From a virus: a stretch of 64,000 bases of DNA. The translations under genes were made by a program, and so were the position numbers. This document shows, one piece after another, positions 1,638 through 64,000 of the stretch. The notes under the pieces were generated by a model. That model did no database searches. It saw only the letters and a program-made list of their open reading frames with translations, and was not told where the DNA came from. Each line of letters starts with the position of its first letter. Position 1 is the first letter of the stretch. The stretch is from the IMG/VR virus record IMGVR_UViG_3300032236_000643, positions 6,411 to 70,410 of that record; one strand, written 5' to 3'.

Positions 1638-3019
1638 TGGCTGGGTTGAAAAACGAGCTTGATAACGCTCGCATGCAACGTGACTCACATAAGAGTTACC
1701 GTCAGGCTGATAAGAAAAGGCTTAAAGCTTTCAAGCATGAAGCGATGAGTGCTCGTGCTCTTTATGAATCAGAAGACGCTCGTCATCGTGGTTTCGCTCA
1801 AAGCCGTAACGCTGTTGCTCATGGTAAGCGCACAAACAGTGGGATGTATAACTATGAGAATCATGAAAGATACCGGTTGCTTGATCGTGCGGTGAATGGT
1901 CCTAGTTTGAAGGATCGCATCGAGCACAAGCGTCACCCTGAGCGTCGTCCTGGTGATCGTGAGAGGGCGCAGCAAGATCGGATTCTTGACCGGAATGGTC
2001 TTCGACATTATGACCCTAGCAACGACAAAATCGAGTTTAAGCAAGGGTATGTGTATCGGCCGTTGCGGTCTGCACCTAATGGAAAGTTTTACGCGATGGA
2101 GGGCGGGCACAGGCCGTTGCTTCCGGCGGATAAGAAGGTTCGTAAAGAGCTGTCGTCAGTAAAAGACGTCAGCAAAAAGCTTCCTTCATCGTTGCGCGCT
2201 ATTGGTACTGAGCACGTGCGTGGTATGACTGTCCCGAAGTTTAAGCCAACGTCGAATCCGTACATCAGATCACGTCAAATTGCGGCTGGTATGGGTTATC
2301 CAAAGGTCGTGCGTCAGGTTGAGGATAAGGCGGCGCACGAGGTTGGTACGTATGTTGATGCAATTGACACTGCTCGTACACATCCCGATCCGCACACGCG
2401 GCAAACGTTTGCTTCGTTGGTAAACCGCAAGACAGGCGGTCCTACGGGTGGCATGCCTGGTTCTATTTGGGACAGAAAAGAACTTCCTCTTGTAGTTCCC
2501 AAAGGGTATGACAAGAAAACTCCGTGGCAGCACATGCGGAGCGCAGCGGATAACGCTCGAAAAACTCAGATAGCGACGGCGCGTAGCGTTCGTGACGAGT
2601 CGCGTTCACGTTTGTCTAAAAGCGAGATTGACGCAATCGTGGATGTTGAGAAGAAGTTGTCACCGGAAAAACTTGCTCAAGCGAAAGCACGTGCGCGTGC
2701 AGCTGGGCGTCCGTATCCGAACGCGTACGACAACATGATTGCTGGTGGCGCTGATTGGCGTAAGGGCAGTCATGTGAAGAAGGAAGCCGAGTTCGAATTA
2801 CCTTCGTGGTATCAGGTTGGTATACCGCCAACGCGTGTTGAGTCAGATCCGATTAATCCGTTGGCGATGGCTGCTTCAAGCCGGATCATGCTTGATAATT
2901 CTGCGGCGTTGTTGGGTCGTAATTTGTCACGTAAGCAGAAGAAGCGTGCGGAGAAGAACGTGTATCAGATTGCTGGTGCGCGTGGTTTGTTGTATTCACC
3001 GTTGGGGATGTTGGGATGA
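1637..3019 (+). CDS. basic modular hypothetical protein (putative protease-processed head cargo)
   Basis: 460-aa ORF coupled by TGATG to the protease gene; very Arg/Lys-rich; VSKK, LSKS and VEKK motifs. Confidence 0.75.
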   Translation: MAGLKNELDNARMQRDSHKSYRQADKKRLKAFKHEAMSARALYESEDARHRGFAQSRNAVAHGKRTNSGMYNYENHERYRLLDRAVNGPSLKDRIEHKRHPERRPGDRERAQQDRILDRNGLRHYDPSNDKIEFKQGYVYRPLRSAPNGKFYAMEGGHRPLLPADKKVRKELSSVKDVSKKLPSSLRAIGTEHVRGMTVPKFKPTSNPYIRSRQIAAGMGYPKVVRQVEDKAAHEVGTYVDAIDTARTHPDPHTRQTFASLVNRKTGGPTGGMPGSIWDRKELPLVVPKGYDKKTPWQHMRSAADNARKTQIATARSVRDESRSRLSKSEIDAIVDVEKKLSPEKLAQAKARARAAGRPYPNAYDNMIAGGADWRKGSHVKKEAEFELPSWYQVGIPPTRVESDPINPLAMAASSRIMLDNSAALLGRNLSRKQKKRAEKNVYQIAGARGLLYSPLGMLG

Positions 3020-4476
3020 GCGAGATGCAACCGGGGAATGATCGTACTCAGCGTGCGATTACTGCTGGCTTGTCGGCTACTGGCGCTGCTGCTGGTGTGG
3101 GTGGTTTGGCGTATGCGGCTCATGATGCGGTGAATACGGTTCGTGCGGGTAAGAAGATTCCGTTGAAAACGAAGGCTTTGATTCCGCTTGAGACTGCGGG
3201 TCTTGCGGGTGAGGTCATGGCTACGAAAATTCTTCATAACGATGCGAAGCGTGATAAGCAACTTTCGGGCAACGTGGCGAAGCGAGATTTTTCTGCGGGT
3301 CAACGTCGTAAGTTGGCGTCCAAGGGTGATGCGTTGCCTGATGGTTCTTTTCCGATTAAAAACCGTTCGGATCTTGCTAACGCGAAACGGCTTGTCGGTC
3401 GTTCTAAGCATCCTGAGGAAGCACGTGAGTTTATTGCTCGTCGAGAATCGGAGTTGAGTAAAGCGATGTCGCGTATGGATGTTGATCCGAAGAATGGTAA
3501 GGGTCGCCGTATCGTTGTTGAGAATGCTGAGTCGGCGGAAGAGAACAAGGAAGAGAATTCTGTTCCTGTGACGCGTAAGAAGTTGCTTGCGATGGCTGTT
3601 GATGTTAAGAACGGCGCGTCGATAAAGGAGGAAGTAGGCAAGGGGTTAAATCCTTCACAACTTGAGGCTGCGACGCGGATCTATTCCGGTGGTGGCAACA
3701 AGGGAGCGCGAGCCTGGAAATTGCTACAACGGAATTCACGAGGGCCGCAAGGAAATGCAATTCTTGGATCGGAAAATAGCCACCGTCTTATGGCGGACAT
3801 GGCTGGCGCTGATCGGGTTCCACGTGCAATGCGCCGTCGAGGTTACACGCCAGACGATTTTTATCATCAGATTAGCCAGTCAACTCTGCGTCATGGTCGC
3901 GCATTACTTGAAAACCCTGATAAACCACGTGGGCTTAGTGCAGTCATGAAGTCCGAAGTGGACAAGGGTCTTCCTTCTGCTCTGCGCCCGGCACGTCTAA
4001 CCGCATCAGGTCTGCGTCCGCCAGGAAAGTCACGTATTTCTTTGATGGGTAACGATAGTTCTGTTCGTGACCGCATTATGGCTAACCACAATGGACGTTT
4101 GGCGGCTCGTGATCAGGAAGGTTCATCTTTCGAGGGCATGGTTTCTCGGTCACGTTCGCGGGACAAGTTTCCTCGACCATCCAAAATCGGTAAGGCTCGT
4201 TACTTCGATCCTGAAGCCGATCGTCAACGCCGTTTAGGTTTGTACTCTGGTGCTGCACTTGGTGGTGCTATCGCTGCGGGTTCTGTCGCGCATAGCAAGG
4301 GCGAGTTCGGTTTTGAACGCGAAGCAGGAGATGCTGCGAAGAAAATGTCACCAAAGTACACGTTGCGTGCGAACCGTAAAGGTGTCGCAGCTGCTGGAGC
4401 GTCACTTGGTTTGGCTGCGTTAGCAGCTGGAACGTACAAGCGTGGCATTTCGCATCGTAATCAGCCGTGGAACTAA
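3016..4476 (+). CDS. modular polyprotein with DUF6582-like module and Gly-rich hydrophobic peptides
   Basis: ATGA overlap with upstream gene; ALPDGSFPIKNRSDLANA motif; six hydrophobic-x-K motifs; hydrophobic Gly/Ala segments at both ends. Confidence 0.75.
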   Translation: MSEMQPGNDRTQRAITAGLSATGAAAGVGGLAYAAHDAVNTVRAGKKIPLKTKALIPLETAGLAGEVMATKILHNDAKRDKQLSGNVAKRDFSAGQRRKLASKGDALPDGSFPIKNRSDLANAKRLVGRSKHPEEAREFIARRESELSKAMSRMDVDPKNGKGRRIVVENAESAEENKEENSVPVTRKKLLAMAVDVKNGASIKEEVGKGLNPSQLEAATRIYSGGGNKGARAWKLLQRNSRGPQGNAILGSENSHRLMADMAGADRVPRAMRRRGYTPDDFYHQISQSTLRHGRALLENPDKPRGLSAVMKSEVDKGLPSALRPARLTASGLRPPGKSRISLMGNDSSVRDRIMANHNGRLAARDQEGSSFEGMVSRSRSRDKFPRPSKIGKARYFDPEADRQRRLGLYSGAALGGAIAAGSVAHSKGEFGFEREAGDAAKKMSPKYTLRANRKGVAAAGASLGLAALAAGTYKRGISHRNQPWN

Positions 4477-4536: not shown

Positions 4537-5475
4537 ATGGGTAGAAAAGTCAATAAACTTTTTGACCTCGAATTCGACGAGGTTTCATCAGTCGACCGTC
4601 CTGCTAACCAGCACGGCCTGATTGCATTCTCCAAGTCTGCCAATGGTGTTGGCGTGTTTGACCTTGAGGATTCAATGACTGAAATTTACACAGAAACTGG
4701 TCTACCAGTTTACGAAGATGACCTCGAACACGGTGACGTTGTTTTCGATGAAGAAGGAAACGAGTACGTCTGGGTCATCCAAGACGAGATTGATTCCTCC
4801 GTCGATAAGGCAATGGCGATTACCGCTGGTGACGAAGCCGAAAACGTCGGATCAACTCTTGCTCGCCGTTCTGGCGGTCTTTTCAACAAGAAAGCAAAGA
4901 TTGCGGCCGGTGCTGTTGCCGGTGCATTGGGTGTCGGCGGTGCTGGCGCTTACATGATGAATCGAAAGGATAAAGACGTGGAGAAGTCGCTCGGCGACTC
5001 AGTCCTCGAGCAGCTCTCCAAGGCTGTTACCGAGGCTGACCGCGAAGCAGTTATCGCTAAGGCCCTTGACGAAGTTGAGGTCGCTAAGGCTCAGGCACAG
5101 GCCGCTCAGGAAGAGTTGGCTTACTTGCAGGATCAGCGTGTAACGGAGGCGTTCATTTCGAAGGCCGCTGAGTACAACCTTCCTGTCGCACCGGAGGTTT
5201 TCGGCCCGATTCTTAAGGCCGCAGCCACCGTTCTCACGGACGAAGAGTTGGACGTGCTTGATCACGTTCTGACTGCTGCTGGGGATGCGATCTATGAAGA
5301 GATCGGCATGTCCGGTGGAGCGTCTAACAGCATTCTCGACCATATCAATGGTTATGCCTCTGAGATGGTTACAAAGTCCGCTGGTGATTTCTCAATCGAG
5401 CAGGCCTCGACGGCGATGTTCACCGCTAACCCTGACGCGTATGACGCGTACATTGCAGAACAGAACGGACGGTAA
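4537..5475 (+). CDS. scaffolding protein with N-terminal protease-like EVSxVDxPAN segment
   Basis: Acidic and helical; lies before decoration and capsid genes; N-terminal DEVSSVDRPAN; C-terminal NPDAYDAY. Confidence 0.7.
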   Translation: MGRKVNKLFDLEFDEVSSVDRPANQHGLIAFSKSANGVGVFDLEDSMTEIYTETGLPVYEDDLEHGDVVFDEEGNEYVWVIQDEIDSSVDKAMAITAGDEAENVGSTLARRSGGLFNKKAKIAAGAVAGALGVGGAGAYMMNRKDKDVEKSLGDSVLEQLSKAVTEADREAVIAKALDEVEVAKAQAQAAQEELAYLQDQRVTEAFISKAAEYNLPVAPEVFGPILKAAATVLTDEELDVLDHVLTAAGDAIYEEIGMSGGASNSILDHINGYASEMVTKSAGDFSIEQASTAMFTANPDAYDAYIAEQNGR

Positions 5476-5480
5476 TTTCA

Positions 5481-6161
5481 ATGTCCTTTGAAGAGGGACT
5501 TAAGTCCATCTCCCTTCTCGCGGATTCCAGCCTGTACGTGTACACGGGTGTTCCTGGCGCGCTGGGTTCACCGTCTGGCTCGGGTAATCTTGGTCCTGCC
5601 GGCAACCTTTACCGTTTTGTGAAGCCCACTGGTTCTAAGACGGTTGGTCTGGCTGTGTCTAGCGCTGACTCTGTGATTGGTGTTCTTCAGAACAAGCCGC
5701 AGGTTAGTAATCAGGCTGCGACGGTTGCCATTCATGGTGTTTCCAACGTGGTTTCAGGTGCTGGTTCGTCTGGTAATGGCACAAACATTGCCGCTGGTGA
5801 TCTCGTGACTGTTGACAATTACGGTCGCGCTATCAAGGCTGCCACGCTCGCATCTGCTGTGACCCTATCGGGAAGCATCACGAAGTCAAGCGCGAACGTT
5901 ACGTACCCCGCTACAGCTAATGGTTTCGTCGTTGGTGACATTGTCACTGTCGCCGGTGCTACTAGTGCGGCGAATAACGGAACGTTTGTTGTTTCGGCTG
6001 CTGCCACGAACACGTTCACTGTGGTGAACGCGCTTGGTGTCGCTGAGACAGCTGCTGGTACTGCAACTAAGCAGAGCCTTAGCGGTCGAGTTGTTGGTGT
6101 TGCGCTTCAGGCGTCAAGCACTGTCAACGAGATCATCCCTGTTCTACTCCGAGTTTCCTAA
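5481..6161 (+). CDS. capsid decoration/cement protein with inserted beta domain
   Basis: YRFVK...VIGVLQNKP...AGDLVTVDNYGRA...VGVALQ pattern; directly upstream of the major capsid gene. Confidence 0.7.
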   Translation: MSFEEGLKSISLLADSSLYVYTGVPGALGSPSGSGNLGPAGNLYRFVKPTGSKTVGLAVSSADSVIGVLQNKPQVSNQAATVAIHGVSNVVSGAGSSGNGTNIAAGDLVTVDNYGRAIKAATLASAVTLSGSITKSSANVTYPATANGFVVGDIVTVAGATSAANNGTFVVSAAATNTFTVVNALGVAETAAGTATKQSLSGRVVGVALQASSTVNEIIPVLLRVS

Positions 6162-6190
6162 GCCGGGCTGAGCGAGAGAGGAAATAACAG

Positions 6191-7171
6191 ATGCCCACGC
6201 CCACTCAGTCCGATCTTCACGTAAACGTACCGCTGACTAATGTCAGCGTTGCGTACATGCAGTCGGCTAGTACCTATATCGCTGACAAGGTGTTCCCTAA
6301 GGTTCCTGTCAGCAAGCAGTCCAACATGTACTGGAAGTATTCGAAGTCCGATTGGCGTCGTTCTGACGTTAAGCGTCGCGCTCCGGGTACTGAGTCACCT
6401 GGTTCTGGTTGGAATCTGAACACGGATACGTATTTCGCGCACGTGTACGCGATTCACAAGGATATTGATGATCAGCTGCGTTCCAACGCTGATTCGAACT
6501 TCAACCTTGATCGCGATGCTACTGAGTTCATTACGAACCAGTTGCTGCTTCAGCGTGACATTGATTGGAATGCGAAGTACTTCACCACTGGTGTTTGGGC
6601 TACGAACAAGGTTGGTACGACTGACTTTGTTAAGTGGTCGGATGCTGGTTCTGATCCGATTTCGGATGTTGCGGATATCGTTGTTCAGTTCCGTAAGTTG
6701 ACTGGTTTTAAGCCGAACATTTGTGTCATGGGCGCGAGTGTTATGAAGGCTTTGAAGCAGCACCCGGACATCATCGATCGTATTAAGTACACGCAGAAGG
6801 GCATCGTTTCCGAGGATCTTATTGCGACCCTCTTCGATGTTGATGAGTTGTACACGTCGTATGCGACGCAGGCAACGGGTGTTCAGATGCCTGATGCTGT
6901 TGCTCAGGATGCGGCTGCTACGTTCGATTTCATCTCGGATTCAAAGAGCGTCTTGTTTGCGTACGCTCCGTCTGGTCCGTCTCTGATGACTCCGTCGGCT
7001 GGTTACACGTTCACGTGGAACGGTTACGTCGGTGGTAATAATCAGGGTATTAAGGTGAAGCGTTTCCGCATGGAGCATATTGCTGCTGATCGTATTGAGG
7101 CTGAGGCTACGTACGACATGAAGGTTGTTGCTTCGGATCTTGGTTACTTCTTGTCGCAGGTCGTGGCTTAA
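6191..7171 (+). CDS. major capsid protein
   Basis: 326 aa; LTNVSVAY, IADKVFPKVPV, WSDAGSDPI and ALKQHPDI motifs of gpE-like capsid proteins; strong RBS. Confidence 0.9.
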   Translation: MPTPTQSDLHVNVPLTNVSVAYMQSASTYIADKVFPKVPVSKQSNMYWKYSKSDWRRSDVKRRAPGTESPGSGWNLNTDTYFAHVYAIHKDIDDQLRSNADSNFNLDRDATEFITNQLLLQRDIDWNAKYFTTGVWATNKVGTTDFVKWSDAGSDPISDVADIVVQFRKLTGFKPNICVMGASVMKALKQHPDIIDRIKYTQKGIVSEDLIATLFDVDELYTSYATQATGVQMPDAVAQDAAATFDFISDSKSVLFAYAPSGPSLMTPSAGYTFTWNGYVGGNNQGIKVKRFRMEHIAADRIEAEATYDMKVVASDLGYFLSQVVA

Positions 7172-51269: not shown

Positions 51270-51790
51270 GGTGGTCCTTTGGGTGTGGGCGGTAATAAAA
51301 AGAACCCCGAGACAGCCAATGTGTGACTGGTTCAGGGTTCTGAGTGTGTTACGGGTGCGAGGTCATAAGTACCTTTTTACGGCAGGCTGCTCCCTCCTCG
51401 CAATAGTGGTTATTTTAGCAGGTAAATGTATCAAAGACAAACAACGAATAGTATCCATGTGAACCATAGACACCCGTAGACATGAAAAACCCGAGCTAGA
51501 CAACCAGCGAACCAGACAACCAAACCAGACAAAACACTCAGACCAGCCAATAAAGACCAAAATAATGGTTCATAACGATTCAGTAACAACAAACTTGACA
51601 CAGTGTGATACCCTTGGCTTCTTGAGCAGTTACAAAGACTCAACACAAACACAGATAAGCGCCCCCTAAAGGGGCGCTACTGCGTAAGAAGCAATACACA
51701 GTAAAAAGAAAAAATCGACAAAAAATAAAAAACGATGCACAACGCATCACAGTGCACAGCGAACACAACCCAACAGTTACGCTGAAACAC

Positions 51791-53317
51791 ATGACAGCCA
51801 CCACACTGCAACTACACAGACCACCCACCACAAAAGAAGAACTCTGGTGGGTGGTCAAAGCCATGTTCGGAATCGAACTACCACGCGTCAAAGTATGCGA
51901 CGACCACACATCACCCTTCGACGCATTCGCAGACGCATACTTCGGAAACGACTTCAACTGGGCCTTGTGGTACGGCAGCCGAGGAACAGGCAAAAGCTAC
52001 ATGCTCGCCCTCCTCGCACTCGTCAAAGCATCACTACTAGAAATCGACGTCACACTCCTCGGTGGCTCAATGGCCCAATCAAACAACGTACGAGAACACG
52101 TCGAAAAACTCATGGACCGACCCAACGCTCCACGAGACATGATCGAACAAATGATCCAAACCGAAATCCGATTCAAACCAGGTAACTGGATTCGCCCACT
52201 GCCGGCATCGCAGAAGACCGTCCGTGGCCCACACCCTGCCATGACATTGCTCGACGAGATCGACGAAATGGAAAAGAAAATCTACGACGCAGCCATGGGA
52301 CAAGCACTCATGCAACCCAACAAACGCGGCATCGTCGTCCAAGAAATGGTCGTCGCCTCATCAACATGGCAGAACCCCATTGGAACATTCCAAGAAGTCA
52401 TCGACGATGCACGACGCAAAGGCATGCCCATCTTCACCTGGTGCTGGCGTGAAGTCATCTCACCCAACGGATGGATGCCCGCAGACTTCATCGAACGTAA
52501 ACGAGCATCCGTCCCCGCAGAAATGTTCCGAGTCGAATACGAACTCGGCGAACCCGCAGGTGATCAACGAGCCTTCGACCTAACAAAGGTCAACCAATAC
52601 TTCGTACCCATGACACCTGTGTTTGAGCGTCACGCAGCTGACGATGATCTATGGGTATATGAGAAGCCTGAGCCTGCGGGTGTGTATGCGGCTGGTGCTG
52701 ACTGGGCAAAGATGAACGATAAGACCGTCATCATCGTGTCACGCATTGATGTTGAACCAAAGCAGGTCGTGTATCTCCGCCGTGTGAATCGTCGGCCATG
52801 GCCAGACATGATTGAAATGTTCAATCAGACCGTAAACGAATATCAGGCTGTTTCTGCGCATGACGCGACAGGCTTAGGCAACGTTGTGCATGACCTTGTG
52901 GATGAACGAACGTTGAAAGTTGAACTAGTAAAAACAAAACGAACGAAACTGCTCAACGAGTACATTTCGGACTTTGAGCAAGGCGCATATATCATGCCTC
53001 GTAACACCCCACTTCATGATGCGCATCGTGCAGCCACTGTGGATGACGTGTATGGGGGAGCGAGCGCATCGTATAAGGCTCATTTGCCTGATGATGTGGC
53101 AGCTGCGGCGATCATGCATCGCGCTGTCAAACGCCTTGCACCTGCTACAGCAGCGCAGGGCGTGCCGAAAACTAATGAAGTTGCACGTCAACACTTACCC
53201 CTGGCTAGTGAACGTTATGAGGGTGATGTTCGTGTGAAAGATAGTGATACTGGAATCAGTGTCACATGGCTACCTCAGGAAGATACAAACGTTTCTTCTG
53301 GTTATTTTCACCTGTAA
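51791..53317 (+). CDS. terminase large subunit
   Basis: GSRGTGKS, VRGPH, LLDEIDE, SST, GADWAK..D.T and HDATG motifs. Confidence 0.9.
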   Translation: MTATTLQLHRPPTTKEELWWVVKAMFGIELPRVKVCDDHTSPFDAFADAYFGNDFNWALWYGSRGTGKSYMLALLALVKASLLEIDVTLLGGSMAQSNNVREHVEKLMDRPNAPRDMIEQMIQTEIRFKPGNWIRPLPASQKTVRGPHPAMTLLDEIDEMEKKIYDAAMGQALMQPNKRGIVVQEMVVASSTWQNPIGTFQEVIDDARRKGMPIFTWCWREVISPNGWMPADFIERKRASVPAEMFRVEYELGEPAGDQRAFDLTKVNQYFVPMTPVFERHAADDDLWVYEKPEPAGVYAAGADWAKMNDKTVIIVSRIDVEPKQVVYLRRVNRRPWPDMIEMFNQTVNEYQAVSAHDATGLGNVVHDLVDERTLKVELVKTKRTKLLNEYISDFEQGAYIMPRNTPLHDAHRAATVDDVYGGASASYKAHLPDDVAAAAIMHRAVKRLAPATAAQGVPKTNEVARQHLPLASERYEGDVRVKDSDTGISVTWLPQEDTNVSSGYFHL

Positions 53318-55587: not shown

Positions 55588-56289
55588 ATGACGCCTAACC
55601 CTCGCTACGGTAATGGCGCTGCTGTCGGGCGGCGTCCTTCTTCGTCTGAGAAGAAGCGAAATGCTGCGTATGGGGTTGCTGGTGCGGGCGCAATCACTGC
55701 TGGTGTTGGCTATGGTGCTGCTCAGTATGGTCGTAAGCGCGTTGCTGGGGCTAAGGGCGCTGACGACCAGCGTTTATCTCATTTGAATGATCGTCGTGAA
55801 ACGAAGATGACGACCGCGAATGTTGCTGAGCAGAACGCTAAGGCGTCTATGCGTCGTGCTGGTCGGGCGTCTCAAGCGCGATCTGATATTGAAAACTGGA
55901 AGCAGGGCCGCGGTCCTGAGACCAAGCAGATCCCCAATCCTGAACAGCATCCGAATACTCGGGGCGGTAAGCAGTGGTACAACGCGAACCGTGTCCATCC
56001 AGGTGACGTGACGCGTATCGCTGACACGATGGATTATTTGGCGAATGAACAAAAGCATCATCTTGGTGAGCAGGTATCGCATCAGGCTACGGCTGACAAG
56101 ATTCGCAATAAAGAACTCCCTGATCTTGAGGACAAGATTAAGAATTTCAAGCCGACTGCACCTGTTGTTGAGGCTAAGTATGGGCGTGTGGCTCGAACTG
56201 GGCGTCGAGGCATGATCGTGGGTGGTCTGACTGCTTTGGGTGGTCTTGTGGCTGCTGAACGTATGCGTCATACGCATAGGGCATCCTGA
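55588..56289 (+). CDS. basic protein with two Gly-rich hydrophobic segments
   Basis: TGATG-coupled to the portal gene; AYGVAGAGAITAGVGYG and IVGGLTALGGLVA. Confidence 0.7.
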   Translation: MTPNPRYGNGAAVGRRPSSSEKKRNAAYGVAGAGAITAGVGYGAAQYGRKRVAGAKGADDQRLSHLNDRRETKMTTANVAEQNAKASMRRAGRASQARSDIENWKQGRGPETKQIPNPEQHPNTRGGKQWYNANRVHPGDVTRIADTMDYLANEQKHHLGEQVSHQATADKIRNKELPDLEDKIKNFKPTAPVVEAKYGRVARTGRRGMIVGGLTALGGLVAAERMRHTHRAS

Positions 56290-57848
56290 TGGCTGATGAT
56301 GTGACATTGCGTGCCAGGCAGGGCACGTATGACCAGTCGAACACGTCGTCTGATGATGTGTTGTTGAAGGAGTCCGAGCGGGCTGGCGCATTTCAGGAAC
56401 TTGGTGCTCTTGGTTTACGCCGCGCAGCTGGTTACATCGATGAAGAGTTCTTACCCCAGATTCGTGGGCGTAAGGGCGTTGAAGTTTTCAAGGAGATGTC
56501 GCAGAACGATCCCATCGTGTCTGCGCTGTTGTTTTCCATTGACCGATTGTTGCGTAACGTTGATTGGCGTGTTGATCCGGCTGGTAAGTCTAAAGAGGAT
56601 GCGAACGCTGCCAAGTTGTTAGAGACGTGTATGGAAGATATGTCTCACACGTGGGATGACTTCATTTCTGAGGTTTTGTCCATGTTGGTGTATGGCTGGT
56701 CTTGGCATGAGATTGTGTATAAGCGTCGTGGTGGTCCGTGGGCGTCTGATGGGCGTTCTCGTTCGCAGTACAACGATGGCATGGTGGGTTGGCGGAAGAT
56801 GCCGATCCGTTCACAGGACACCATGTTGCGTTGGGTGTTTAACGATGATGGGTCAACGAAGGGCATGGTGCAGATCGCACCGCCGCGTTATCAGACGATC
56901 GCTATTCCGATTGAGCGTTCTGTTTTGTTCCGTTATCGGCATTACAAGGATTCGCCTGAGGGCGTGTCGATGTTGCGTGGCGCGTATCGGCCGTGGTTTT
57001 TCAAGAAGCGCATTGAAGAGTTTGAGTCCATTGGTGTTGAGCGGGATCTTGCGGGTTTGCCTTTGGTGAAGGTTCCTGCGGAGATGCTGCGTGCGAAGCC
57101 TGGTACTGATCAGGCTAAGAGTGTGGACGCGTTTAAGAAGCTTGTTAAGTCTGTTCGTCGTAATGATCAGGAGGGAATGGTTTTCCCGTCTGCGTACGAT
57201 CAGGAGACGAAGCAGCCGTTGTATTCGTTTGAGCTTCTTGGCGGCGGTGGTGCTCGCCAGTTCAACACGTCTGAGATCATTCAACGGTATGAGCAACGCA
57301 TTTTGATGACTGTGTTGGCTGATTTCATTCTTGTGGGCCATGAGGGTAGTGGCTCGTATTCGATGCATACGGATAAGACGGGTATTTTCCGTACGTCGTT
57401 GAATTCGATTACTCAGTCGATCGCGGACACGTTGAACAGGCATGCTGTTCCGAAGTTGTTTTTGGCTAATGGGTGGAAGCCTGCTGAGTTGCCGAAGATT
57501 GTTCCGGATGATGTGGATTCTCCGGATATTACGGTGTTGTCGTCGTTCATGTCGTCTATGGCATCTATGGGTGTGACGTGGTTTCCTGACGGTAATTTGG
57601 AGAACTTTTTGCGTTCGGCTGCTCGGTTGCCTGAGTTGGATGATGACCAGTTGGAGCAGCGTCGTCAGATGCAGATGCGGTCGGAGGCGACACAGTTCGC
57701 TGAGGCCAATTCGTTGTATGTGCAAACGGAGAACTCGTTGCAGGCTGCTATGCGTGGCGAAATGCCGGGTGAGCAGGCGACAGCTCAAGATAAGAAATCG
57801 GCCGATAAGGCTCAGTCTTCGAAGAAGGCTGGTGGGTCGCGTGAGTGA
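56289..57848 (+). CDS. portal protein (DUF935-like)
   Basis: ELG..G, EEFLPQ.RG, YGWSWHEIVYK, SPEG.S.LR, ERDLAGLP and GSYS motifs. Confidence 0.9.
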   Translation: MADDVTLRARQGTYDQSNTSSDDVLLKESERAGAFQELGALGLRRAAGYIDEEFLPQIRGRKGVEVFKEMSQNDPIVSALLFSIDRLLRNVDWRVDPAGKSKEDANAAKLLETCMEDMSHTWDDFISEVLSMLVYGWSWHEIVYKRRGGPWASDGRSRSQYNDGMVGWRKMPIRSQDTMLRWVFNDDGSTKGMVQIAPPRYQTIAIPIERSVLFRYRHYKDSPEGVSMLRGAYRPWFFKKRIEEFESIGVERDLAGLPLVKVPAEMLRAKPGTDQAKSVDAFKKLVKSVRRNDQEGMVFPSAYDQETKQPLYSFELLGGGGARQFNTSEIIQRYEQRILMTVLADFILVGHEGSGSYSMHTDKTGIFRTSLNSITQSIADTLNRHAVPKLFLANGWKPAELPKIVPDDVDSPDITVLSSFMSSMASMGVTWFPDGNLENFLRSAARLPELDDDQLEQRRQMQMRSEATQFAEANSLYVQTENSLQAAMRGEMPGEQATAQDKKSADKAQSSKKAGGSRE

Positions 57849-60200: not shown

Positions 60201-63200
60201 CACGACTTGTTGGTTTGATTGAGAAGGCGTTCGCGGATGATCCGTTGGGCGCTGCGATCTTGCTTGATGAAGCGATGTGTTTGTACGCGTCTGATTTGAT
60301 GGATGAGTATGACTCGCAGATCCAGTCAGCGATTGCGCGTGATACGCATCGTCGTATCAATATTGCGAAGTCAGCGTTGGGTCGCCAGTACGTAGAGACC
60401 ATTAGTAAGGGCGTATATCCATCTCGTGATGTGCGTCAGACTGCTGAATGGTTGGCTGGTTTGTCCGCATATGCAGACGTGGTCAGCAAGGGCGTGATGT
60501 TGGAGTTCTGGGGTAAGAAGCAGGATAAGCGTTACGTTGCTCGTGATTCTGCTGGCCGGTTCACCAAGGTTGTGGATACGAATCGTTCATCGTCAGCTAC
60601 GGGCGCACCGTCCTCGAAATTATCGCCTGCACTGTCCAGTAATGGGCATGTGAGTAATGGTGCGTTGTCTGAGTCGGCTAAAGAGAACGAGTCGACTGTT
60701 AACCGTCACCAGGCACAGTACGAGCAAACGGATCAGCATATTCGTGACTTGTATCGTATGTTTCAGGGCAACTCTAAGGGTGTTGAGGTTGAGATTAATC
60801 GCCTCAAGGAGGGTAATGTCGCTGACCCGTTAGTGTTCCCGTTGATTCAGGGTCGTGATGGGTTCCCGGCTGCGGTTGCATCTCAGATTAACCCGTTGGA
60901 TGAGACGATTTTGTCTGTTGGCGTGAAGGCTAAGAATGACGCTTCACGTGAAACGCAGGAACGTATTGCTCGGTTCAATTCGTTTGGTGTCGTGTCGCCC
61001 AAAATGGCTGATCAGCAGTCGTTGAAAGATGCGTTTGGTTTTTCGTCTGCCACGGAGAGTGGCACGGACGAGTTTTTCCGGCGTATGCGTGGTATTTCGG
61101 GTGTTTTGAATGCGACGGGTAATCAGAAGGCGGCTGCGTTCGCTGAACTGGTTGGTACGCATGGTGCTGAGGCTGAGAAGATTATTGGCCCGTATGTTCG
61201 TCAGTCTGCGTATCGGTATCGGGGTACGGAGAAGTCTCCTGATAAGGAATTGTTAGAAGAATTTTCATCTCAGGATATGAGAAGCGTGCAGGCAGGGCTT
61301 GTCCCAACTGACGCGTTTGGTGTGGTTGCTGGTTCGGCTAAGTATCGTGCGAAGGACCGTCCGTCAAAGGATCAGTTCAAGCTTGAGGTGCAGTCGGATA
61401 CGGCTGCCCAATTCTTGATGAGAACATTGCCGAACGATCTGTTCACAGCCAAGTTATCTGAGAAGTCAGGTCACGTTCTCCCATCTCAGGGTGTGATCAT
61501 CAACGCTGACGGTCAGGTAATCACGCAGGCTGTCGGGTATGCAGACGATCACTATTTACCGTTTGATTTGAAGAACCTTGCTGCGCTTCGCGGCGGTCAG
61601 TACGTGCGCACTCGCGTATCTGGCGGTCTTACGGGTGAGGACATGTATGCGGCTGTCCAGTCTGGTGCTCGTATGGCAACTGTTGTCTCATCGTCTGGAG
61701 TGTTTTCCATCGAGTTTGATCCGAACTTCCGTGGAGCACGCGGTAACTCAGATAAGGCACGCCAAATTTACGGCCGCTATTTGAAGATCCTTGATGCGGT
61801 TGACCAATCAGGTTTGTACTTGAAAGACATTGACCCGTCGATCAAGGACGATATTAAGCGTACTGCTGCTCAGTACTATCCCGGTGATAGTGCAGATGCT
61901 AAGGCGTTGCGTGAGAACTACGAGAACACGCAGATCGAACAGAAGCGCCAAGAAGCCCGTGATGGCATTGATGTGGCTGCTCTTGAGGCTGAGGCTAAGC
62001 AGGCTGCATCGAAGGAACCTGGTTTCGCGCAACGGTCAGCTGCGGATCAAGCTCGTCTGGTTGCTGATTTTTATGATGAGTTGAAGGGTGAACGGCAGCG
62101 TGAGCAAGTTCAAGAACTTGCGTTGAACACTGCTGGGTACGGTAAGGCTTTGGAAACGTTGCAGCAGCAGTTCCCGTATTTCATTCGTAAGGTGTCGTAT
62201 CAGCCGTTGGCTGGTCGTGCTAACGATCCTGATGGTGTTGGCTTCTTGGATGCTTTGGGGTTGAAGAACACTCTTTCGATGGGTCGTAACCGGGTTAATA
62301 CGAAGGATTCGGGTTACGTGTCTCCTGGTGGGTTGCGTCCGCGTTCGGTTCAGTCTGGTTTTTATGAGTCGGCGACGACGACAATTCCTTCGCCTAAACG
62401 GCCTGGTAAGGCTGATGAGTCTACTGCGGAGCGGCAGGGAGCTCAGGGCGGTGAGACTCCTAAGGCCGCGGGCACTGGGGATGCTGGTTCGGCGGGCGGC
62501 GATGTGTCTCCAGTGCCCTCTACGTCTGATTCACCGTTGTTGAAGCGGCTAGCCATGTATGAACCAGCATCTAAAAAAGAGGTTAATGAGTCAGCTCGTG
62601 TTTTGTTTGACGCGTTGCAAACGCTGCCGAAACAATATTCACTGGGCGGCGACATGGGCGAGAGTGCAGCGTTGGCTGACGAAAACCCTAAATCAATTGT
62701 TGAATACCTGTTCACAAACCCAGCTAAGTTGAAAGATCTTGCAACCAATCCGAAGGTCGTATCTGCTTTGAGCGATCCGGGTGTTGTTCGTGGCGCGTTC
62801 CTAAATATTTACGGATTTTCAACTCTTGATGTGACCATAAACGAAAGCAGTGGTATTTCGTCACAATTCAATAATGCAAAAACGCAAAATGAAGCTGTTG
62901 ATTTTGTTGTACAGGCTGCTGCAAAGATTGCTATGAACGCATCGTTGATGTCACCTTTCAGCAGTCCGTCGTCTGATCCGTATGCGGTTGCTGAACTTCC
63001 TCGTCCTGATCAAGAAATCATGCGCCTAGACACGTTAGACAAGATGAAAGCGTGGATGTCACAGGACAGTAACAAGAATGTGGCACGTTTGGCTGGTGAA
63101 CTTGGTGAAAATCCAGCACCCGTTGTAAAACAATCTGTCGAGCTGCTGAAGAAGATGAAAGAGAAGTCTTCTGATGCTGTGAGCGAGTCTGCTGGTAAGC

Positions 63201-63550
63201 CAGAGGAGTACGCGTCACGTCTTGCCACGCTCATTGGCGTGAATCCTGAAACGCTGGCGATGACGTTGGGTACTGATGTGACGCCGGCTACTGTGCAACC
63301 ACTGTTGTTGGATCGTCGTGCTGCTGATTTGCAGCGTGCATGGTCATTGGCTCAAGCAGGCCGTGTTTTGAGCATCATTGATGATCCGTCTGGTGGTGGT
63401 TCCCCAAAAGTTCCACACCCGCAAAGCGGGGTGATGAAGTCACTGGCGCTCTCGTCCCGACGGGTGGACGTCTTGGCGATGGAGCACCCGTTAACGCGTC
63501 GAGTGATGTTGAACAAATCGTTAGGGAAGCCGCTGCTGAGCCAGATCTAA
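60197..63550 (+). CDS. large head-associated protein with RDxxGRF motif and degenerate JAB-like domain
   Basis: 1117 aa; IEKA, IAKS, ISKG and VSKG motifs then ARDSAGRF; ATGA overlap with upstream gene. Confidence 0.75.
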   Translation: MTRLVGLIEKAFADDPLGAAILLDEAMCLYASDLMDEYDSQIQSAIARDTHRRINIAKSALGRQYVETISKGVYPSRDVRQTAEWLAGLSAYADVVSKGVMLEFWGKKQDKRYVARDSAGRFTKVVDTNRSSSATGAPSSKLSPALSSNGHVSNGALSESAKENESTVNRHQAQYEQTDQHIRDLYRMFQGNSKGVEVEINRLKEGNVADPLVFPLIQGRDGFPAAVASQINPLDETILSVGVKAKNDASRETQERIARFNSFGVVSPKMADQQSLKDAFGFSSATESGTDEFFRRMRGISGVLNATGNQKAAAFAELVGTHGAEAEKIIGPYVRQSAYRYRGTEKSPDKELLEEFSSQDMRSVQAGLVPTDAFGVVAGSAKYRAKDRPSKDQFKLEVQSDTAAQFLMRTLPNDLFTAKLSEKSGHVLPSQGVIINADGQVITQAVGYADDHYLPFDLKNLAALRGGQYVRTRVSGGLTGEDMYAAVQSGARMATVVSSSGVFSIEFDPNFRGARGNSDKARQIYGRYLKILDAVDQSGLYLKDIDPSIKDDIKRTAAQYYPGDSADAKALRENYENTQIEQKRQEARDGIDVAALEAEAKQAASKEPGFAQRSAADQARLVADFYDELKGERQREQVQELALNTAGYGKALETLQQQFPYFIRKVSYQPLAGRANDPDGVGFLDALGLKNTLSMGRNRVNTKDSGYVSPGGLRPRSVQSGFYESATTTIPSPKRPGKADESTAERQGAQGGETPKAAGTGDAGSAGGDVSPVPSTSDSPLLKRLAMYEPASKKEVNESARVLFDALQTLPKQYSLGGDMGESAALADENPKSIVEYLFTNPAKLKDLATNPKVVSALSDPGVVRGAFLNIYGFSTLDVTINESSGISSQFNNAKTQNEAVDFVVQAAAKIAMNASLMSPFSSPSSDPYAVAELPRPDQEIMRLDTLDKMKAWMSQDSNKNVARLAGELGENPAPVVKQSVELLKKMKEKSSDAVSESAGKPEEYASRLATLIGVNPETLAMTLGTDVTPATVQPLLLDRRAADLQRAWSLAQAGRVLSIIDDPSGGGSPKVPHPQSGVMKSLALSSRRVDVLAMEHPLTRRVMLNKSLGKPLLSQI

Positions 63551-64000
63551 GTGACATTGATGCGGACAAGGTCACGAAAATCAAGGATGATATTGGTTCG
63601 ATGATTGGCATGCATGCTGTGTCGAATCAGGTGAATGCGTTGATCGCGCAGGGCGTGTACAACCGTCGGCGTGAAGCAGATGGGTTACCTGTTACGAAGG
63701 ATACGAAACACATGGTGTTCGTCGGTAATCCGGGTACGGGTAAGACAGAGGTTGCGAAGAAAATTGCGCCTTTGTATGAGGCTCTTGGTCTCACACCAAA
63801 TGATGTGTTTGTTGCGCCGAAGAAATCTGAGCTGATTGGTACTGTGTTGGGTGAGACGCAAAAACTCATTCAGGAACAGTTTGAGAAGGCTCGTGGTGGT
63901 GTCCTGTTCATTGATGAGGCGTATGCGCTCGTTGAGGGCAAGCAGGACATGTATGGCAAGCAAGCTGTGAACACGTTGCTTGAACTTATGGAGAACCATC
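63403..64000 (+). CDS. AAA+ ATPase (CbxX/SpoVK/EccA type), partial, probably expressed by -1 frameshift
   Basis: Read manually in frame 1: HMVFVGNPGTGKT and GGVLFIDEAYAL; runs off the window edge. Confidence 0.85.

Follow-up and report, generated by a model that had tools for sequence, protein, structure and literature searches.

How is an ATPase translated when its reading frame opens inside the gene upstream and offers no start codon at its beginning? This question is raised by the end of a 64,000-nucleotide (nt) stretch of viral DNA (the window), which corresponds to bases 6411-70410 of the IMG/VR record IMGVR_UViG_3300032236_000643. There, a gene encoding a protein of 1117 amino acids (aa) (P0002; 60197..63550, + strand, like the other features of the cassette described below) lies between the portal and head-protease genes, and its end is overlapped in the -1 frame by an open frame that leads into an AAA+ ATPase. 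We consider it highly probable, from the sequences compared here, that the 1117-aa gene ends in a cassette for programmed -1 ribosomal frameshifting, by which the ATPase is appended to some copies of its product.

A slippery heptamer in phase at the frame junction

The -1 frame is open from position 63385, 165 nt before the last base of the 0-frame open reading frame (ORF), and has no ATG, GTG, or TTG before the ATG at 63601. Within it, 141 nt before the stop of the 1117-aa gene, lies the heptamer C CCA AAA (63403..63409), which has the X XXY YYZ form of a -1 shift site. Since CCA (63404-6) and AAA (63407-9) are codons of the 0 frame, the heptamer has the right phase for a tandem -1 slip. The predicted products are an unshifted protein of 1117 aa and a shifted one of about 1400 aa, made of the residues up to Lys1071 followed by 329 residues of the -1 frame, with the junction ...GGGSPK/SSTPAK.... 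The overlap zone (63410..63550) would be read in two frames, giving in the 0 frame the tail VPHPQSGVMKS...LNKSLGKPLLSQI and in the -1 frame a linker. The -1-frame continuation, comprising this linker and a CbbX/SpoVK/EccA-type AAA+ ATPase (63409..64000), runs past the window, which stops inside the ATPase. The ORF resumes at positions C1:124-521 of the record, where it ends after 337 codons counted from 63385.

The main elements of this layout had been pointed out in a reading made from the letters alone (the sequence-only reading). Our analysis of ORFs bears out its account of a -1 frame that opens some 165 nt before the upstream stop without a start until 63601, and direct reading of the window finds CCCAAAA at 63403-63409 in the correct phase. 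The hairpin that it placed 4 nt after the heptamer (63414-63433) is present, the junction peptide reads as predicted, and the VMKS and LNKS motifs that it mentioned are both in the 0-frame tail. Its central claim, a programmed -1 slip joining the 1117-aa protein to an EccA/CbbX-type ATPase, receives strong support from the relatives.

Conservation of the heptamer among relatives

Eighty IMG/VR loci were kept for comparison, and the homologous ORF closes within 62 of them. At 23 of these 62, an in-phase CCCAAAA lies 100-250 nt before the stop, and the accompanying -1 ORF, 316-487 codons long, encodes a Walker A motif. No locus with a match as far as the C-terminal region of the protein falls outside these ATPase-type loci. 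Four further loci (L033, L034, L036, and L057) have an in-phase CCCAAAA with a -1 ORF that is not an ATPase, and L037 has G GGA AAA in place of C CCA AAA. The remaining 34 have only the core domain of the protein in common with the others; they lack such a heptamer and their next gene begins at the stop. Three more ATPase-type loci came from metagenome contigs, and the removal of identical copies left 23 non-identical ATPase-type sites, the window included. All of them have the in-phase C CCA AAA and the -1 layout, at 31-44% protein identity and 44-72% GC. None has a stop in the -1 frame between the heptamer and the ATPase, and in 14 of the 23 a -1 stop lies at most 4 codons upstream of the heptamer.

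The heptamer is letter-identical at 28 of the 29 non-identical slip-site loci, L037 being the exception. Across the ORFs of 44-72% GC, CCA accounts for 3-59% of the Pro codons and AAA for 2-62% of the Lys codons. CCCAAAA is nevertheless identical at all 25 non-identical sites tested, against codon usage. The product of the synonymous-choice probabilities at these sites is 10^-63, a value that overstates the case because the loci are related. The comparison argues that the heptamer is selected as RNA, beyond the requirements of the protein.

The wider family could be followed at the protein level. It comprises 604 representatives clustered at 50% identity, about 50 of which are aligned over their full length. 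In a script-anchored tally of 70 full-length representatives, the dipeptide at the site is Pro-Lys in 48 and Pro-Phe in 9, one of these nine (P0177) reading FPK on inspection. Pro-Phe stands at the slip position of P0005, P0006, P0024, P0171, P0172, P0248, P0249, P0251, and P0265. The script could not anchor 13 of the 70; by eye, PK or PF is visible in 11 of these and absent from P0196 and P0227. The residue preceding the Pro can end in C in all 57 script-anchored representatives. Lys and Phe are chemically unlike, yet AAA and UUU are both slippery triplets.

Fused, in-frame forms were not seen in this family. A word-indexed search gave none among 31 sequences; the 30 homologues measure 735-1225 aa and all lack an AAA domain. 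In a profile search of 1.84 billion representatives, the best 150 of the 604 family members are all at most 1236 aa long, and hence include no in-frame fusion. Longer in-frame forms were also sought from the ATPase side, where the matches were filled with multi-AAA bacterial proteins of at most 45% identity and were uninformative. The -1 layout stands at 23 of 23 ATPase-type DNA loci, and the homologues are not the in-frame fusions that would have refuted the sequence-only reading. A tblastn search with P0002 gave no match among 50,697 phage records, no relatives were found as prophage or host genes in 185,579 bacterial and archaeal species genomes, and no close relatives of the ATPase piece were found in IMG/VR by exact peptides. 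The arrangement spans a large family without a cultured member. We conclude from these alignments that a diverse family of uncultured phages conserves the cassette, its open -1 frame, and the selection acting on this frame.

Dual coding in the overlap

Whether the -1 frame is translated ahead of the 0-frame stop can be judged from the overlap. One line of evidence is a motif of the linker, GALVPTG (63445..63465; LVPTG at 63451-63465). There are 14 instances of LVPTG in the overlap, from 12 loci, and their codons vary only at the third positions of the -1 frame (CTC/CTT/CTG, CCG/CCA/CCC, ACG/ACA/ACT, GGT/GGA/GGC). The 0-frame reading of the same bases varies freely (LSSRRVD, RLSRQVR, YWSQQDP, PSLPRVA, and others). 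The 46-aa tail encoded by the 0 frame after the site is itself conserved as protein.

Pairs of close relatives give a second line of evidence. In three pairs, divergence falls from 0.078-0.143 upstream to 0.014-0.04 in the overlap, and in a fourth from 0.188 to 0.14. The strong bias toward 0-frame third positions is lost within the overlap, and past the 0-frame stop the bias lies on the third position of the -1 frame. For the short stretch from the 0-frame stop to the Met column, the codon-position test covers 114 nt, too few to give it weight. Because divergence drops, the third-position bias vanishes, and the bias then follows the -1 frame, the overlap carries the signature of dual coding, and we interpret it as being under selection in both frames.

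The LVPT-type motif occurs in the linker at 12 of 23 loci and at the C terminus of the ATPase at 7 of 23 (L013, L015, L017, L019, L024, L027, and L031); 17 of 23 have it in either place. Beside the ATPase it takes the form G-x-L-V-P-T-(G/S)-(R/K). The unshifted tail ends in GLP(L/F)VP... at 11 of 23 loci, with the form GLP(L/F)VP(T)R in L007, L010, and others. LVPT(G) may therefore be a docking or cleavage signal common to both isoforms. In the genome of the phage itself LVPT has two occurrences, near what chance alone would give, so that the weight of the motif comes from the relatives. The second occurrence (AGLVPTD, window position 61298) lies at residues ~369-374 of the same 1117-aa protein.

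RNA signals flanking the heptamer

A candidate 3' stimulatory hairpin (63414..63433; CACACCCGC-AAA-GCGGGGTG) begins after a 4-nt spacer (63410-13). In the RNAfold prediction it has 8 base pairs, an AAA loop, and a single bulged nucleotide, A63417. At -12.3 kcal/mol, it ranks within the best 1.4% of 32-nt windows in its own ORF. Relatives have hairpins of differing sequence that begin 4-7 nt past the heptamer, and the downstream 32-nt window is within the best 5% of its own ORF at 18 of 26 sites. In a strain from a second sample (X2), the sole change in the hairpin is at the bulged base, and the spacer has 63412 T>C.

Upstream of the heptamer, the G-rich tract GGTGGTGG (63392..63399) is a candidate Shine-Dalgarno (SD)-like 5' stimulator, and it also encodes a conserved Gly-Gly-Gly. 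Its anti-SD duplex, at -11.9 kcal/mol, is within the best 1.6% of the ORF, and the upstream anti-SD pairing is within the best 5% of its own ORF at 22 of 26 sites. This pairing was scored against an anti-Shine-Dalgarno motif. Among the upstream Gly codons, GGT is used 39 times in 66, with 23 expected.

The AAA+ ATPase

The -1 frame encodes an AAA domain by Pfam (AAA, 3.9e-14). Among NCBIfam families, the part of the ATPase within the window matches EccA (8e-37), SpoVK (2e-33), and CbbX (7e-27). A complete homologue from locus L004 gives 2e-67 (EccA), 6e-67 (SpoVK), and 2e-57 (CbbX), and against the PDB it matches EccA1 at 6e-49 and CbbX at 2e-47 (PDB 3zuh, 3syk, and 9lur). The alignment of the AAA+ module to this group spans ~230-250 residues. 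Walker A (GNPGTGKT, 63724..63747) and Walker B (VLFIDE, 63901..63918) are intact and conserved in the alignment of relatives. The equivalog cut-offs were missed, with 228, 225, and 192 bits against the 467, 423, and 459 required for EccA, SpoVK, and CbbX, respectively. The match to the EccA profile is limited to positions 261-557 and has no TPR part. By sequence comparison, then, the ATPase is a member of the CbbX/SpoVK/EccA group of AAA+ ATPases, short of equivalog level. It is like the other members of this group in its alignable AAA+ module and intact Walker motifs, and differs from them in being phage-encoded, without the EccA TPR domain, and, very probably, reached only or mainly by frameshift. 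The linker between the slip site and the ATPase has ~55 aa. As the sequence-only reading suggested, the ATPase might act as an unfoldase or cargo chaperone.

An EccA-like AAA module is also found in a cultured phage. Mycobacterium phage Adler (L197; KC960489, a record marked UNVERIFIED_ORG) encodes at 5011-6912, among large hypothetical genes, a 633-aa protein with such a module at its C terminus. It resembles our ATPase in that a phage EccA-like module, at 33% identity, is C-terminal in a longer protein. It differs in being in frame over its 633 aa, with no frameshift seen, and in that P0002 has no tblastn match there. In the Adler protein, a cultured phage may thus have a fused counterpart.

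The 1117-aa carrier protein

The protein that would carry the ATPase has no Pfam or PHROG family. Its AlphaFold2 (AF2) model is mostly helical (pLDDT 72), with the slip site in a disordered stretch (1064-1093). Searched against BFVD, the whole model matched only an uncharacterised homologue from an uncultured Caudovirales phage. A conserved core lies at window positions 61400-61843 (residues ~402-549; DDHYLPF...GGQYVRTR..GGLTGED), and we aligned it in 48 sequences (alignment A3). The model of this core domain is alpha/beta (pLDDT 79). Its fold matches are the DddB deaminase (Z 6.9), RadC (6.2), PfJAMM1 (5.9), Cap3 (5.5), and AfJAMM (5.4), all below Z 8. Nearly all of the 50 fold-search rows for the core are JAB/MPN or deaminase folds, the best Foldseek E value being only 9e-3. 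A profile search of the PDB with the core domain gave no match at E <= 1, and 7 of the 48 core sequences touch the Pfam family crAss_CARGO2 (PF25712, Crassvirus cargo protein 2), with a best E value of 0.045, which is not significant. The models thus give a weak lead toward a JAB/MPN- or cytidine deaminase-like fold. A zinc-binding His/Cys/Asp motif was sought among the invariant and near-invariant columns of A3, which include no Cys and one His (H51 of DDHY). Since conserved zinc ligands are absent, the core, if the fold is real, is not a standard active enzyme.

Points against the frameshift and alternative explanations

Several observations weigh against our interpretation. The loci share kinship, and site counts are therefore not counts of independent events. 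The sequence-only reading had looked to relatives for conservation of the heptamer and of the hairpin: the heptamer stood in all ATPase-type loci, and the hairpin in part, since it is not outstanding, by the best-5% criterion, at 8 of the 26 sites. The whole 98 nt after the heptamer in the window fold no better than shuffles (z -0.71). The SD-like tract is not outstanding at 4 of the 26 sites. Because its distance to the heptamer varies between 0 and 10 nt, and because it also encodes conserved glycines, the G-rich tract is only a candidate, and its role as a 5' stimulator is proposed tentatively. The Pro-Phe members of the family are expected to carry a C CCU UUY heptamer, an expectation read from their proteins only. 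Fold matching brought little for the carrier: Foldseek found nothing in the PDB for the whole model at E <= 0.001, and a wide fold search gave only generic helical matches (Z <= 7.1). The position of the gene in the head module is the sole basis for calling the 1117-aa protein a head or virion protein. Finally, a free ATPase with a slightly short N terminus could also be made from the ATG at 63601, given its moderate SD match, and an ATG lies 41 aa before Walker A in 15 of the 23 loci.

This last point leads to the first alternative, that the ATPase is an ordinary separate gene. It would start at ATG 63601 (63601..63603, residue 73 of the open -1 frame), with a ribosome-binding site of its own or through re-initiation past the stop (63548-63550), and the heptamer, the hairpin, and the open frame would be incidental. 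An AAGGAT upstream of this ATG (-7.1 kcal/mol) is in keeping with such a start, and the phmmer match to CbbX begins at about that Met. Of 37 putative gene starts, 11 have anti-SD pairing at least as strong, as do 11% of random positions; in relatives, the pairing at the corresponding ATG is mostly weak (-0.7 to -7.9 kcal/mol). The aligned column is Met in 15 of 21 sequences and Leu or Tyr in the other 6, and in L019 and L027 both Met columns lack an ATG, the first start being a TTG 35 aa before Walker A. Hence, the homologues do not show a conserved independent start for the ATPase, in line with the sequence-only reading. That reading also placed the ATG inside the expected first helix of the ATPase, and this agrees with the family profiles, which match from residue 56 (EccA), 61 (CbbX), or 68 (SpoVK), 5-17 residues upstream of the Met, which puts the ATG within the conserved N-terminal part; the phage proteins, too, conserve that helix. 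A separate gene would further leave unexplained why the heptamer is invariant against codon bias, why the -1 frame always opens at it, and why LVPTG is under selection in the overlap. We regard a separate gene as improbable, and an internal start as a possible, additional minor route to a secondary product.

Two other explanations keep the fusion and change its cause. The frame could change on the RNA, by slippage of the RNA polymerase in the run of A or of C, and the outcome would be the same, a minority product in the -1 frame. Transcriptional slippage usually needs runs of 7-9 or more, and the runs here are of only four A and four C. The exact X XXY YYZ phase, a hairpin at 4-7 nt, and a candidate SD-like tract are signals of the ribosome, and we find polymerase slippage very unlikely. 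Less credible still, to a degree that we would hardly entertain it, is an assembly or sequencing indel in the C4A4 run that splits a single in-frame gene of 1400 aa. The slip site is indeed a pair of homopolymers, prone to indel errors, and the record is a metagenome assembly. The same -1 layout is found in 23 non-identical loci from many assemblies, the 0-frame tail past the site is conserved as protein, and the length limit of the best family members given above leaves no room for such a gene among them. Moreover, another sample of the same study yielded a contig, ~92% identical, that spans 63311-64000 without gaps and keeps the heptamer. Another contig, X1, is probably from the source sample and is not independent. 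Programmed ribosomal frameshifting remains by far the reading that best fits these data.

How the cassette may work

Under programmed frameshifting, most ribosomes would read through the heptamer and make the 1117-aa protein with its conserved 46-aa tail. A fraction would slip one base back, with the tRNA-Pro moving from CCA to CCC and the tRNA-Lys from AAA to AAA. The hairpin 4 nt downstream would aid the slip, and pairing of the upstream G-rich tract with the 16S rRNA would probably aid it too. Slipped ribosomes would then read the ~55-aa linker and the complete AAA+ ATPase, giving the protein of ~1400 aa.

In retroviruses, the Gag/Gag-Pol frameshift attaches enzymes to a protein of the particle in a low, fixed proportion, and they are co-assembled. 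The slip would likewise set a low, fixed ratio of ATPase-bearing to plain copies and would tie the ATPase physically to the large protein, to be carried wherever that protein goes, as with Gag and Gag-Pol. From the position of the gene, the most likely destination would be the procapsid or the portal region, with the ATPase as cargo or assembly factor, and the LVPT(G) beside it may act as a docking or cleavage site. The phage shift is like Gag-Pol in that an enzyme would be tied to a protein of the particle module. It differs in that Gag-Pol belongs to eukaryotic RNA viruses, and packaging of the phage fusion is a supposition.

Comparison with known frameshifting systems

A -1 frameshift in dnaX of Escherichia coli yields tau and gamma (reviewed in PMC5009743). 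The dnaX cassette combines an SD-like tract at a fixed spacing of 10 nt, a heptamer of the X XXY YYZ form whose last codon is Lys, and a stem-loop downstream. The phage cassette resembles it in a three-part signal, of which the upstream tract is a candidate, and in the Lys codon at the end of the heptamer. The two differ in the heptamer itself (A AAA AAG in dnaX, C CCA AAA in the phage) and in the spacing of the SD-like tract, which is variable in the phages. They also differ in outcome, because a ribosome that shifts in dnaX terminates immediately, leaving a shorter protein, whereas in the phage it would read 329 codons and add a whole enzyme. What they would share is the production of two proteins at a set ratio from one gene. 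The heptamer C_CCA_AAG is described as highly shift-prone in E. coli (PMC5009743).

Phages offer parallels in morphogenesis genes. The sequence-only reading had called CCCAAAA a known phage slip site, and for Lactobacillus casei-group phages the same heptamer is indeed given as the site of slippage in the major head gene (PMC6950654). The head and tail genes of Lactobacillus phage A2 and 10A/10B of T3/T7 (PMC5009743) also resemble our case, in that a gene of the morphogenesis module has a C-terminally extended minor form. Their extensions are small Ig-like decoration domains on a capsid protein, whereas here an AAA+ ATPase would be added to a 1117-aa carrier. In lambda G/GT (PMC2147016), a conserved -1 slip in a morphogenesis gene gives a longer product of low stoichiometry that links functions. 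That system differs in belonging to the tail module, in its small proteins, and in having no enzyme domain and no sequence relation to the present cassette.

In tailed phages, -1 frameshifting is thus known mainly for tail chaperones and small capsid decoration domains. Here, the same decoding trick would equip a giant head-module protein with a complete enzyme for ATP-driven protein remodelling. In the literature searched, which included passages from PMC10885494 and PMC4066793, we found no phage head-module protein described as joined to an AAA+ ATPase by frameshifting. If the fusion is packaged, phages would have a means to dose an unfoldase and deliver it with the virion, a bacterial-virus parallel to Gag-Pol. 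There are also practical implications. Gene callers split the 1117-aa/ATPase gene and start the ATPase at the internal Met, and the annotation of these phages is therefore wrong at the slip site. Since its heptamer does not vary over 44-72% GC, the cassette could also offer frameshift predictors a clean test case from nature.

Other extensions at the same junction

The loci of a sister clade raise an additional question: is the ATPase the only domain that such a junction can carry? In-phase CCCAAAA with a non-ATPase -1 ORF occurs at L033:6130, L034:6307, L036:7045, and L057:6526, and in-phase GGGAAAA at L037:6157. The -1 extensions of this clade are 62-300 aa long and contain no ATPase. In L033, L034, and L037, the GC pattern at the three codon positions (GC1/2/3) shows that the -1 frame is coding, and the domains, of 190-215 aa, are unrelated. 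No Pfam family was found for the non-ATPase extensions, nor any BLASTP similarity to each other. The slip site may be a junction for the exchange of cargo domains. From this one can imagine, tentatively and with more doubt than confidence, a strategy like that of Gag/Gag-Pol, in which the slip site is a modular junction that gives a small fixed fraction of the carrier an AAA+ unfoldase (in the clade of the window) or unrelated domains (in L033, L034, and L037), the cargo being co-packaged or co-delivered and LVPT(G) serving as the docking or cleavage signal. In the same scenario, the ATPase could work with the degenerate JAB/MPN-like core of its carrier, a combination that recalls MPN proteins on AAA+ rings.

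The record and the gene neighborhood

The virus record has 70,410 bp and a 123-bp terminal repeat. This repeat (window 63878-64000, record C1:1-123) lies inside the ATPase gene, which identifies the "direct terminal repeat" as an overlap left by the assembly of a genome that is circular or circularly permuted. For the same reason, gene callers will cut the ATPase ORF at the end of the contig.

The gene order places the 1117-aa gene in the head module. It is preceded by a gene resembling terminases (51752-53317), by a portal gene of Mu type (56289-57848; PHROG, 1.3e-87), and, between the portal and the 1117-aa gene, by an ORF of 703 aa. After the ATPase, across the record ends, large ORFs without family assignment precede a protease-like gene (939-1637), which is followed by a scaffold-like gene (5481-6161) and the major head protein (6191-7171; 2.6e-87). 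The assignment of the ORF at 939-1637, taken as the head protease, is not clean: its top PHROG is a DNA methyltransferase (8.9e-24), and head maturation protease families appear only at 1e-10 or weaker. An ORF of 784 aa, rich in Ser, Thr, and Gly and with no PHROG family, occupies 521-2875 of record C1 (L003). Downstream of it, a 206-aa ORF (2890-3510) begins with collagen-like GPQGP(A/Q)GPQ repeats.

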